Of a DNA stretch of 39,405 bases, positions 37,205 to 39,405 are shown piece by piece. Numbering within the stretch: the stretch's first letter is position 1; each line of letters opens with the position of its first letter. Origin of the DNA: a virus (taxonomy: Duplodnaviria > Heunggongvirae > Uroviricota > Caudoviricetes); IMG/VR virus record IMGVR_UViG_2713896795_000007, positions 1-39,405 of that record. One strand, 5' to 3'. Position numbers and translations under genes: made by a program. The notes beneath the pieces were generated by a model that saw nothing but the letters and a program-made list of their open reading frames with translations, ran no database searches and had not been told where the DNA came from.

Positions 37205-37423
37205 AGCCGCTGAGAAGCGTTTTTGCTTCAGTGAAACAAAATATTGGCTACTGTAGCATCGTGTTTAAAGAAAAACCGGCATGGTTGATGCCGGTTATAT
37301 CAAAGCACGATATAAACTAAGGATAAAAGGATTTCAGGAACAACAATCTAACCAAAAGGTATATTTGAATCAAGTATGACCTGTGTATTGTTATTTATTT
37401 ATCGTTTCGTGATTTTTTATGGC

Positions 37424-38224
37424 TTATTTATAAGAGTTAGATTTACTCTCAGTGCGTTTTTGTAACCAGTTTTTTAATATTGTATTTACTTCTTTTGCAT
37501 GAGTGACATTCAATGCATGATTGGCGTCAGGTATAACTGCAAGCTCAGAGTGCGGGATCATTTTGTGCATTTCAAGAGCTTTCTCCAGTGGTATTCCTGT
37601 ATCACCGGATCCATGAAGAATCAGGGTGGGCGTTTTGATCGTATGAACTTTACCTGAAATATCGTCTCGCTCCAGCATTGCATTCATAGCTAGTTTGATG
37701 TTTTCAGGTTCATGACGTAGCCATACTTGTCTCCATTTCGCTGCTTCAGAGATATTCTTTCCAAAGAAAACGGGTAATAATGAGGATATTATCTCTTCTT
37801 TTATTAGTGAGTTATGCCATCCATTGCATAGTTCCATATAACTGGATGCAATTTCTGGCGGGTCCTGCTCGACCTGAGTTGCCATAAGAATTAGTCCTGA
37901 CAAACGCTCTGGATGTGACAGGGCAAATCGTAATGATATATACCCTCCCATCGACATCCCCCCTAAAATAAACTTATCCAGTTGTAGTGAGTCTGCGACG
38001 TTTACAATGTCATCAACGATGTCATAGAGCGAGAATGGCTCAGTTTTTTCGGAGGTGGCATCGAAACCCCGAACATTAATGCAAACAACTCTATGTTTTT
38101 CTTTTAGTTCGTCAAACTGGTATTTGAACATTTCATTATTCATGAAAAATCCATGAACGAAAATGATAGGGGGATTGTTTTTATTTGTTTCAGTGTATCC
38201 AGAGTCAGTAAACGTAAAATTCAT
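37424..38224 (-). CDS. alpha/beta hydrolase-fold protein (esterase/lipase-like), cargo gene
   Basis: 266 aa; IIFVHGF oxyanion region, nucleophile elbow GGMSMGG, Asp (HGSGD) and His (ANHAL) for a triad; strongly AT-rich and on the minus strand. Confidence 0.85.
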   Translation of the reverse strand: MNFTFTDSGYTETNKNNPPIIFVHGFFMNNEMFKYQFDELKEKHRVVCINVRGFDATSEKTEPFSLYDIVDDIVNVADSLQLDKFILGGMSMGGYISLRFALSHPERLSGLILMATQVEQDPPEIASSYMELCNGWHNSLIKEEIISSLLPVFFGKNISEAAKWRQVWLRHEPENIKLAMNAMLERDDISGKVHTIKTPTLILHGSGDTGIPLEKALEMHKMIPHSELAVIPDANHALNVTHAKEVNTILKNWLQKRTESKSNSYK

Positions 38225-38333
38225 GAGTACTCCGTTATTTAGACAGTTATGTTGTACATTTGACTAATGATAGCGAAGAGCTTTATTGACCTGCTGAACA
38301 GAAATCCACTTGTCAAAAACCTTCGAAGTTTAT

Positions 38334-38656
38334 CTACCAAGATGGAGATAATCTTGTCAAGTATTCGTTAGGGCATAAAAGCATGGGTTTAATAGTAAAT
38401 CTAAGACTTTTACGTGCGACAACACGCCTCATTCGTGTTGTGTTTTGTCGCAGTTTGTTCTTAAATTCTCGCAAATCATTTCCCTCTAATTTGAAGTAGT
38501 GCCTCCCACAAACAAACCGCTCAGAGTTACGGGTGTAATTGACTCTGATGTTGTTGATCTTGGCACCTAAAGCTGATCCAAAAGTTCGGTGATGATAACA
38601 GGAATCTGGTTATGGATGAGCGGGGATATGGTTTCAACAGAGATTTGAGTTGTCAT
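38334..38656 (-). pseudogene. frameshifted, diverged partial copy of the ORF6N-type gene
   Basis: Minus-strand ATG at 38656 gives MTTQISVETISPLIHNQIPVIITELLDQL then stops; homology continues in the -1 frame (GAKINNIRVNYTRNSERFVCGRHYFKLEGNDLREFKNK). Versus the intact paralog one T is missing at the LYG codons. Confidence 0.55.
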
Positions 38657-38841
38657 AATGACGTCCTCTAGTGGTTTCTAAACTTAAACTATCACCACCG
38701 TCAGGTTCCAATCATCGGGTGGTGAGACGCACAGGGTTGGAACTACCGGGAAACCGACCGACGAGCTTTTCAGCTCCCCCATGCGCCCCACAATAATTCA
38801 TATGTGCGCGTGCATACGAGAAAAAACACTTGTTATATCTG

Positions 38842-39405
38842 CTAAAGCTGCATCAGCCTTTCCACCAGTTGTTCTTTACGGGCAACGAGCCAGCCGTGTT
38901 GCTCCAGATAAAATTTAAACCGTTCCAGAGTGCATACCATCGCATCGGCGGGGACTTTTTCTGTGAACTCTACCTGCCCGTGTTTATCGAAGTGGATCAG
39001 TAATGCGCATCCATCATTTACGGTGGGGGTGTTTTGTGTTGCTGGTGGCTGTTTCTGGCTGAAATAACAGTCTTCCAGTTTTTCGAACACTTCCCACGCC
39101 TGATCTGTTTCGAGCATTTTGGCGTGGCGGGCTGCGCCACGTTCTGTCCATAGGATGAGGGAGCGGGCTTTGGGAGATATGGGGTTTTGTGACTTACTTA
39201 AAGTAAGTCGCAAATTTTTTAATTCTTCACCCGATGCTTTAAAAAAGTGCTTTCCTTCGACAAAACGCTCTTTGTTTCTGGTGAAGTTAACCTGGATATT
39301 CAGAATTTCGGTGCCATAAAGCTGCGCCAAAAGTTCGGTGGTAATAACAGGGATCTGGTTATGGGTGATCGGGGTGAGAGTTTCAACAGAGATTTGAGTG
39401 GCCAT
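38842..39405 (-). CDS. ORF6N-domain protein (phage antirepressor-like)
   Basis: 187 aa; N-terminus MATQISVETLTPITHNQIPVITTELLAQLYGT...VNFTRNKERFVEGKHFF is the ORF6N-type signature; start codon sits at the last three bases of the window, so the true start cannot be confirmed. Confidence 0.7.
   Translation of the reverse strand: MATQISVETLTPITHNQIPVITTELLAQLYGTEILNIQVNFTRNKERFVEGKHFFKASGEELKNLRLTLSKSQNPISPKARSLILWTERGAARHAKMLETDQAWEVFEKLEDCYFSQKQPPATQNTPTVNDGCALLIHFDKHGQVEFTEKVPADAMVCTLERFKFYLEQHGWLVARKEQLVERLMQL

Follow-up and report, generated by a model that had tools for sequence, protein, structure and literature searches.

Introduction

In the phages P1 and P7 the immunity operon immI consists of the gene for the C4 antisense RNA, icd and ant, and in P1 the C4 RNA is processed by RNase P. 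The C4 RNA (Rfam RF01695) lies upstream of the antirepressor gene and on the same strand, its targets are located both upstream (a1/b1, Rfam RF03163) and downstream of it, the latter at the ribosome-binding region, and its specificity resides in two short loops, which differ between heteroimmune relatives. In the Salmonella prophage Gifsy-1, transcription from the isrK promoter with partial read-through of a terminator yields a processed RNA of ~80 nucleotides (nt) and extends into the antirepressor-like gene anrP, the translation of which is activated in trans by IsrK (PMC4825925). In this work we describe a locus resembling both systems at the right-hand end of a 39,405-nt stretch of viral DNA (IMG/VR record IMGVR_UViG_2713896795_000007; "the window" denotes this stretch at its full length). 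The part under study, termed here the block (positions 37205-39405), contains a gene for an alpha/beta hydrolase and two genes, one of them truncated, for proteins with an ORF6N domain.

The block is the attR-proximal end of an ompW-integrated lambdoid Escherichia coli prophage with a Mu-like contractile tail, and it is a mosaic of three pieces with sharp junctions, namely a hydrolase cassette, a truncated regulatory module and a resident ORF6N antirepressor. To the overall picture, in which a resident RNA switch, a heterologous truncated module and a mobile hydrolase cassette adjoin at a prophage end, we assign a probability of roughly 70%, our confidence in the anatomy being much above that in the role of the hydrolase. 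The individual parts are all of familiar kinds (an antirepressor module under C4/isrK control, an enzyme of the alpha/beta hydrolase fold and, at the tail-fibre end, a moron), and the findings leave the current understanding standing. What is new is in the detail: two modules of different specificity in tandem, together with an orphan C4 RNA (here C4'), the two-by-two table of C4 loop alleles, the att-proximal instead of nin-region position of the antirepressor module, and the repeated use of one slot by a rare hydrolase cassette.

Organisation of the prophage end

The block matches the chromosomes of E. coli ST2350 and C8 at 99.9% identity, and its whole arrangement was found in only five complete genomes. 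The DNA beyond the right end of the window was read from the ST2350 locus (L001, 26 kb), which shows this same identity of 99.9% to this part of the window. At the left end of the ST2350 prophage the integrase and excisionase genes stand beside an intact ompW gene, and at its right end a 126-bp 3' fragment of ompW lies 460 bp past the start of the ORF6N gene. The attR site, a 121-bp repeat of ompW sequence, starts 467 bp beyond the window (Table 1) and has the same length as the att site published for ompW prophages (PMC8112680). It is because of this combination, with int and xis beside intact ompW at the left and the ompW fragment and att repeat at the right, that the block can be placed at the attR-proximal end. 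The extension past position 39,405, which the preliminary description of the locus had proposed as a way of finding an integrase, an invertase or an att site, has thus brought to light the att site next to the block and the integrase at the other prophage end, but neither an invertase nor an invertible tail-fibre segment is annotated at either end of the prophage.

The order of genes in the ST2350 prophage is lambdoid from the integrase, excisionase, exo and dicB through the Q antiterminator and the lysis genes to a lambda-like head, after which follow a Mu-like contractile tail and baseplate, a fibre protein with leucine-rich repeats and, last, Tfa. In the excised circle attP would separate the block from int, which would lie immediately upstream of it on the same strand. 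This att-proximal position is that of the b region of lambda. The switch of both strand and composition after Tfa, as noted in the preliminary description, is confirmed, since GC content falls from 0.55-0.66 across the tail module to 0.32-0.46 over 37200-38700 and the features that follow are on the minus strand. No LexA box (CTGT-N8-ACAG) occurs over the 26-kb locus and therefore there is no sign of an SOS control like that of the Gifsy antirepressors.

Table 1. Features of the block and its surroundings, from left to right. Positions are those of the window; positions above 39,405 are window-equivalent and lie off the window. Module 1 is the intact and module 2 the truncated antirepressor module.
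Feature	Position	Strand	Basis
Tfa, tail-fibre assembly gene, last of the GC-rich tail module and left boundary of the block	36665..37204	+	Pfam Caudo_TAP, E 7e-25; RefSeq 'tail fiber assembly protein'
Intrinsic terminator of the hydrolase gene, GC-rich hairpin followed by TTTTCTTT	37274..37296	-	Terminator scan; 9-pair stem with 5 GC pairs
Alpha/beta hydrolase gene, 266 amino acids (aa), complete open reading frame (ORF)	37424..38224	-	Pfam Abhydrolase_1; GC 0.39
Conserved non-coding hydrolase leader with GGAG Shine-Dalgarno sequence and two invariant TTGACA hexamers	38225..38452	-	Alignment across cassettes
ORF6N pseudogene, first 67 codons of a different antirepressor allele, 3' part replaced by the hydrolase cassette	38454..38656	-	RefSeq pseudogene
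Leader of module 2, with sites UUGGAAC (38705-38711) and GAAACC (38673-38678, just upstream of a GAGGA Shine-Dalgarno sequence)	38657..38714	-	Complementarity to its own C4
C4' antisense RNA gene, loops GGUUUC and GUUCCAA	38715..38798	-	Rfam RF01695, 58.4 bits (gathering score 45)
Module 2 pairing, C4' GGUUUC with leader GAAACC			Complement search
Module 2 pairing, C4' GUUCCAA with leader UUGGAAC			Complement search
ORF6N-domain antirepressor-like gene, complete	38842..39405	-	Pfam ORF6N; PHROG 2379
Module 1 pairing, C4 UCCGUAC with leader GUACGGA, overlapping the GGAG Shine-Dalgarno sequence			Complement search
Module 1 pairing, C4 ACGCCAA with leader UUGGCGU			Complement search
C4 RNA	39457-39541	-	Rfam RF01695, 77.6 bits (gathering score 45)
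isrK RNA	39569-39645	-	Rfam RF01394, 75.5 bits (gathering score 50)
c4-a1b1 target motif, overlapping isrK	39606-39658	-	Rfam RF03163, 51.2 bits, above gathering score
Sigma-70 promoter TTGACA-18-TATATT, just upstream of isrK	39652-39681	-	11 of 12 positions match
attR, ompW repeat	39872-39992		121-bp repeat

The resident antirepressor module

The second ORF6N gene, described earlier as an intact paralogue that runs off the window, is intact but does not run off: all 187 aa of its product are encoded within the window, the last three bases of which form the ATG. Because the window ends at this start codon, the control region of the gene is invisible in the window alone and becomes apparent only in the extension (L001 14202-14480). 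The protein contains an ORF6N domain (PF10543; residues 12-97, 76.7 bits against a cut-off of 27.8) and over its entire length (residues 1-187 of 187) matches phrog_2379, annotated as 'anti-repressor', with an E value of 2e-90. Upstream of it and on the same strand lie, in succession, a C4 RNA gene, an isrK RNA gene with an overlapping c4-a1b1 target motif and a sigma-70 promoter. The terminator scan of the L001 locus detects a terminator belonging to isrK itself, so that the hallmarks of an isrK locus are all present, namely an antirepressor-like gene preceded by an isrK RNA that has its own promoter and Rho-independent terminator, the isrK part being off the window.

In the same-strand order of C4 and antirepressor gene, in the location of C4 targets both upstream and at the ribosome-binding region downstream, and in the use of two short loops that vary between relatives, this module is like immI of P1 and P7. 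Likewise, it shares with the isrK-orf45(STnc1160)-anrP locus of Salmonella Gifsy-1 an isrK homologue with a promoter and a presumably leaky terminator, a structured RNA of ~85 nt and an antirepressor-like gene. It differs from P1 in that the protein is a 187-aa ORF6N protein instead of Ant1/2, and in that the module belongs to an integrated lambdoid prophage, where it stands beside attR as one of two tandem modules, the other being truncated. The isrK-C4-ORF6N order is also that of phages carrying Shiga toxin (Stx) genes (phiSTEC1589-Stx1c, CP-1639, P27, PA28 and others), the modules of which are 76-86% identical in nucleotide sequence to one or the other module of the window; in the two Stx phages inspected, however, the module has the replication genes on one side and Q on the other, whereas here it is found at the opposite end of the map beside attR. 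In phiSTEC1589-Stx1c a match to sRNA-Xcc1 (68.6 bits; L017 4469-4559, minus strand) is located just downstream of the antirepressor gene and before a Rha-like gene.

The ompW prophage of the O113:H21 strain FWSEC0010 contains a single isrK-C4-ORF6N copy between its tail-fibre genes and attR, and no hydrolase gene. Since a C4 gene precedes each of the two ORF6N genes of the block and the module recurs in the FWSEC0010 prophage, the ORF6N gene is a regular regulatory component of these prophages and not cargo. In this context the 'ORF6N domain protein' genes at the ends of E. coli prophages would represent the protein output of an RNA switch of the immI/isrK type, which annotation restricted to proteins, and the limits of a sequence window, conceal.

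Pairing and specificity of the C4 RNAs

Prediction of the duplex between whole C4 and leader molecules was uninformative, as it unfolds the entire RNA, and was replaced by a search of the leaders for perfect complements of those loop and linker segments of C4 that are unpaired in the Rfam consensus, with shuffled leaders as controls. Each C4 RNA is perfectly complementary to its own leader at two sites (Table 1), over 7 + 7 nt in one module and 7 + 6 nt in the other, a total reached by 16 of 5000 shuffled leaders for module 1 and by 38 of 5000 for module 2. The C4 of module 1 additionally finds complements in the isrK region. Module 2 lacks an a1/b1 element upstream, and complements of C4' are found neither in the leader of module 1 nor in the isrK region. 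Judged by their loops and leader sites, the two modules of the block have different RNA specificities.

This pairing model is supported by the co-variation of loops and targets across six modules, two of this prophage (L001 14253-14337 and 13511-13594, giving here and below the coordinates of C4), two of the E24377A prophage (L002 12255-12339 and 11515-11598) and one each of phiSTEC1589-Stx1c (L017 5401-5484) and CP-1639 (L018 5428-5511). Among them occur two alleles of the a' loop and two of the b' loop in all four combinations, and in six of the six modules the leader targets change together with the loops. This mixing of alleles looks as if RNA immunity specificities had been reassorted as modules among the prophages of E. 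coli and the Stx phages, and the co-variation provides a ready specificity table for cross-immunity among ompW and Stx prophages.

The truncated second module

Module 2 spans 38455-38826, as delimited by pairwise BLAST. It begins 16 nt beyond the stop codon of the intact ORF6N gene and hence is devoid of a promoter or isrK/a1b1 element of its own, and it ends where the homology to the hydrolase cassettes of other prophages starts (38452). The C4' gene begins 43 nt past the ORF6N stop codon and is separated by 58 nt from the ATG of the pseudogene. The latter carries a deletion of 1 nt at ~38567/38568, which brings about a stop at codon 30; RefSeq marks the fragment as 'frameshifted; incomplete' in two genomes, in agreement with the truncated and frameshifted ORF6N-type copy reported previously. 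A remainder of the pseudogene reaching to ~38266 was considered and rejected, because the sequence 38225-38452 is common to hydrolase cassettes without an ORF6N gene.

On an alternative view of the origin of the pair, which follows the preliminary description in invoking recombination at a hotspot, the whole block would be cargo and the two ORF6N genes would stem from a tandem duplication that was local and recent and left one copy to decay. A direct repeat does exist at the two ORF6N 5' ends (38568-38656 and 39317-39405), with weaker homology continuing to ~38455, although with 85% identity over 89 nt it falls short of the near-identity over ~85 nt attributed to it, and what is repeated extends beyond the coding 5' end to the leader and the C4 antisense RNA gene. 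Together with the frameshift of the truncated copy and the composition of the region, which is distinct from that of the tail module, this repeat could be accommodated by a local duplication. However, over 373 nt module 2 is 86% identical to the ant module of phiSTEC1589-Stx1c and only ~70-72% identical to its neighbour, from which its C4 loops and leader targets differ at both sites. Of the 84 nt of the C4' RNA two, both in stems, differ from the C4 of phiSTEC1589, the recognition loops being identical. Furthermore, an isrK-C4-ORF6N module next to attR is the regular arrangement in at least one other ompW prophage lacking the hydrolase. Because module 2 is closer to the Stx phage than to its neighbour and has different loops, we regard a recent tandem duplication as quite improbable; module 2 would rather be a heterologous module cut at both ends.

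It is conceivable, though on balance doubtful, that the truncated module is not junk and that the orphan C4', produced by read-through of the antirepressor operon and having the intact loops of a live Stx1c phage, could silence antirepressors of the second specificity class in trans, in which way it may mediate cross-talk between prophages. If so, C4' would extend the immunity of the lysogen to heterologous prophages such as Stx phages, or damp the induction by them, and the free mixing of loop alleles would be the trace of an arms race, fought with immunity RNAs, among the prophages of E. coli.

The hydrolase cassette

The AT-rich hydrolase cassette occupies ~37268-38452 on the minus strand. 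The hydrolase gene is not flanked by the ORF6N genes, as had been thought, since both are on one side of it, upstream on the minus strand. The hairpin of its intrinsic terminator could additionally block read-through from Tfa, and the segment 37268-37378, in which it lies, is also kept in the cassette of 2015C-4136CT1. At the opposite border, homology to the cassettes of other prophages stops at 38452 (pairwise BLAST). Among diverged alleles the 190 nt of the leader nearest to the start codon are 85-92% identical and thus at least as conserved as the coding region.

Of 5426 complete E. coli genomes, 30 carry the gene. Four prophage backgrounds were inspected, two of them with a Mu-type tail (at ompW and at dusA) and two with a lambda-type tail (at icd and near zinT); in each the gene stands directly after tfa and on the opposite strand, and in three of the four it is unaccompanied by ORF6N. 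By this distribution the cassette would be independently mobile accessory cargo. The proposal of an accessory hotspot after Tfa is thus borne out for the hydrolase, which is AT-rich, rare and found in the same slot in four unrelated backgrounds, but not for the ORF6N genes.

The cassette corresponds to a moron, such as those of the lambda b region and of effector loci, in being an extra gene of deviant composition (GC 0.39, as against 0.55-0.65 in the tail module) between genes that are adjacent in relatives: in the FWSEC0010 prophage the tail-fibre genes are followed straight by ORF6N, with no hydrolase between. It has, moreover, its own terminator, and a leader with two invariant TTGACA hexamers but no full sigma-70 match; it is transcribed against the late operon, and it uses the kind of slot that in Escherichia albertii holds effector genes. 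It is unusual for a moron in that its cargo is an alpha/beta hydrolase without a close relative among 50,697 phage records, where tblastn finds nothing above 30% identity (best 27%). In other prophages the hydrolase cassettes are bordered by fragments of tail-fibre assembly genes (L006 8380-8515; L004 6806-6919), which hints that recombination inside tfa-like sequence moves the cassette among prophages. An inverted repeat of 19 nt, 84% complementary (37429-37447 and 38394-38412), brackets the hydrolase ORF; it was discarded as probably a chance match, its left arm being in a 3' segment that other cassettes do not share.

Accessory and defence genes classically occupy a slot that directly follows the tail-fibre genes and adjoins att, and this position, the AT-richness and patchy distribution of the cassette and the weak, domain-level matches of the ORF6N domain to PADLOC entries (candidate PDC-S05, E 4e-8) would be compatible with an anti-phage defence system consisting of the hydrolase alone or of the hydrolase and the ORF6N protein. 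This we think very unlikely, as the hydrolase has no match in PADLOC-DB v2 at E <= 0.01, and the ORF6N protein matches a phage antirepressor family over its full length and stands behind C4/isrK control. In addition, the hydrolase and ORF6N block exists in only five genomes and the three copies in other backgrounds have no adjoining ORF6N gene, and therefore the two are no obligate pair.

The hydrolase protein

The hydrolase scores 100.1 bits against Pfam Abhydrolase_1 (PF00561, clan CL0028; cut-off 25.8) and is also above cut-off for Hydrolase_4, Ndr and Abhydrolase_6. The preliminary description had recognised a complete enzyme with a nucleophile elbow and triad candidates, a view to be given up if the catalytic residues were missing from an alignment. 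They are not missing: G89, S91, G93, D208 and H236, including the triad S91/D208/H236, are invariant in an alignment of 24 sequences (26-94% identity), and the oxyanion motif H24-G25 is kept in at least 90% of these. The nucleophile elbow reads G-M-S91-M-G-G, and the HG, GxSMGG and PTL motifs fit the bacterial lipolytic family V. The AlphaFold2 model (mean predicted local distance difference test score, pLDDT, 92.3; predicted template modelling score, pTM, 0.91) has a four-helix cap at residues 123-184, and Foldseek relates it with template modelling (TM) scores of 0.82-0.86 to solved esterases and lactonases. The nearest are the Thermogutta terrifontis esterase TtEst (PDB 4UHC-4UHH; 30% identity, E 3e-33, TM 0.85), with which the Ser-Asp-His triad, elbow and HG oxyanion motif align, and aryl esterases/perhydrolases such as that of Pseudomonas fluorescens; these share both fold and four-helix cap, as do the PcaD enol-lactonase and Est816, and further relatives by fold include a feruloyl esterase and an esterase degrading acyl-homoserine lactones (AHL). 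Among the alleles of four prophages the ratio of nonsynonymous to synonymous substitution rates (dN/dS) is 0.17-0.22 at dS 0.4-0.7 and hence the gene is under purifying selection. These data are evidence that the gene encodes an intact, functional serine alpha/beta hydrolase, predicted to be cytoplasmic, since no signal peptide is visible on reading the N-terminus.

The substrate is most likely, to judge from the model and its structural neighbours, a small soluble ester or lactone, like that of a short-chain carboxylesterase or lactonase. Identities to the TtEst group are 20-30%, too low for a substrate to be transferred, and the gene belongs here to a prophage cassette instead of a catabolic operon. 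None of the NCBIfam equivalogs reaches its cut-off, the scores being 2-8 times too low (for example PcaDC 121.7 of 390 bits, PcaD 104.6 of 255.9, BioH 88.1 of 207 and macrolide esterase 70.8 of 420), so that by these cut-offs the protein is not assignable to the PcaD enol-lactonase, BioH, RutD, MenH or the macrolide esterases EstT/EstX.

A scan of genome contigs for relatives returned only E. albertii and an Endozoicomonadaceae genome, plus a weak (28%) match in Brevibacterium. In E. albertii NBRC 107761 (contig L007, 6426-12117, next to bioF/bioB/bioA) a homologue of 69% identity lies amid genes for a PipA-family protease, two NleG proteins and an AvrPphF-like protein, and thereby occupies a slot used by exchangeable type III effector loci. 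On metagenome contigs (L013-L016) a relative of 46% identity, P0014, belongs to a conserved run of genes for a bundlin-like pilin, DsbA, an SdiA-regulated/phytase-like protein, an unassigned protein, the hydrolase and an EAL-domain protein, near which are K88-type fimbrial genes and genes for serine protease autotransporters of Enterobacteriaceae (SPATE). A third relative, of 47% identity, is encoded on a Photobacterium damselae plasmid near a toxin-domain gene, and a paralogue of 52% identity in E. coli is found in a metabolic context, between genes for a solute-binding protein and an aldehyde dehydrogenase.

The first three of these neighbourhoods, together with a low GC content typical of such cargo, raise the question of whether the enzyme is associated with host interaction or virulence, being delivered or acting in colonisation from a slot, which in attaching-effacing strains holds type III effector genes. 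Its carriers, however, are the rectal-swab isolate ST2350, the bovine strain C8, the enterotoxigenic strain E24377A and avian pathogenic strains, and such E. coli are usually without the secretion system of the locus of enterocyte effacement (LEE). Neither a signal peptide nor any other secretion signal can be recognised in the hydrolase, the copy in E. albertii consists of two ORFs, the 52% paralogue is in metabolic surroundings, and the suggestion comes only from the neighbourhoods of distant relatives; a role of this type is accordingly improbable. The cassette, which is rare, is under purifying selection and has moved among at least four prophage backgrounds into one slot, a slot that in E. 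albertii holds type III effector genes, is on these grounds a reasonable candidate for lysogenic conversion.

Proposed mechanism

By analogy with P1 immI and with Gifsy-1 isrK-orf45-anrP, transcription would start at the isrK promoter and partly read through the isrK terminator, and the C4 RNA would be cut from the same transcript. By its two loops C4 may then pair with the two leader sites, one of which overlaps the Shine-Dalgarno sequence, such that the ORF6N protein would remain untranslated in the lysogen. The short IsrK RNA, which carries mimics of the target sites (a1/b1), could titrate or remodel the C4 block, and the freed ORF6N antirepressor would be expected to inactivate a prophage repressor. 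Since no minus-strand terminator is detected between the isrK terminator and the hairpin at 37274-37296, read-through would continue into C4'. The hydrolase, finally, is probably expressed from its own leader in lysogens, to the benefit of the lysogen rather than the virion.

As regards this last step, the hydrolase could alternatively be the distal gene of an isrK-C4-ORF6N-C4' transcript and be made only on read-through around induction, which would be compatible with the overall picture. All elements are on the minus strand, the same terminator-free interval extends up to the hydrolase hairpin, and no strong promoter is detected in the hydrolase leader. Yet the same ~230-nt leader accompanies the hydrolase in three prophages lacking an upstream ORF6N or C4 gene, its conservation, at least as high as that of the coding region, argues for an own promoter or regulatory site, and the frameshifted pseudogene would expose a long transcript to Rho-dependent termination. 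We consider expression by read-through unlikely on this evidence, though less so than a virulence-associated role, and retain expression from the cassette's own leader.

Several observations weigh against the picture as a whole. Unlike in P1, where the strict operon needs icd coupled to ant, no icd-like ORF separates C4 from the antirepressor gene; the spacers are 51-58 nt, and that of the intact module (51 nt) contains in-frame stop codons. Nor is there a counterpart of the Gifsy-1 orf45, the stop codon of which overlaps the start codon of the antirepressor gene, and therefore the mechanism of coupling may differ. The name 'antirepressor' is a putative one taken from the PHROGs family annotation and from position, the C-terminal half of the protein (residues 107-187) has neither a Pfam family nor a solved structure at E <= 0.1, and in sequenced phages this half has no close match except one of 64% in the Actinobacillus phage vB_Apl-pPE4. 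With respect to the hydrolase, the consensus scan, whose sole match is inside the coding region, gave no convincing sigma-70 promoter for the leader, and an alpha/beta hydrolase fold by itself, with equivalog scores far under the cut-offs, leaves the substrate unfixed. The gene is also dispensable, since it is disrupted in E24377A and DS26-1, where two coding sequences (CDS) are annotated, and split into two ORFs in E. albertii.

Other features of the prophage

The large tail protein encoded at window positions 32531-35821 (plus strand) has an N-terminus like that of Mu Gp48, a Big_2 domain and an extended series of leucine-rich repeats of the BspA type. It varies in length among otherwise near-identical prophages (1096 aa here, a CDS of 4332 nt in ST2350 and one of 2535 nt in E24377A), which suggests variation of repeat number in a receptor-binding protein. 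In the early region of the prophage a sok antitoxin RNA (window 4555-4709, plus strand; Rfam RF01794, 116 bits) is found next to a gene annotated as that of the toxin HokD (hokD), and the two form a type I toxin-antitoxin pair. Two adjoining tRNA genes (window 10358-10430 and 10437-10508, plus strand), annotated in ST2350 as tRNA-Thr and tRNA-Gly, have a DNA methyltransferase gene on their upstream side and the lysis genes on their downstream side.

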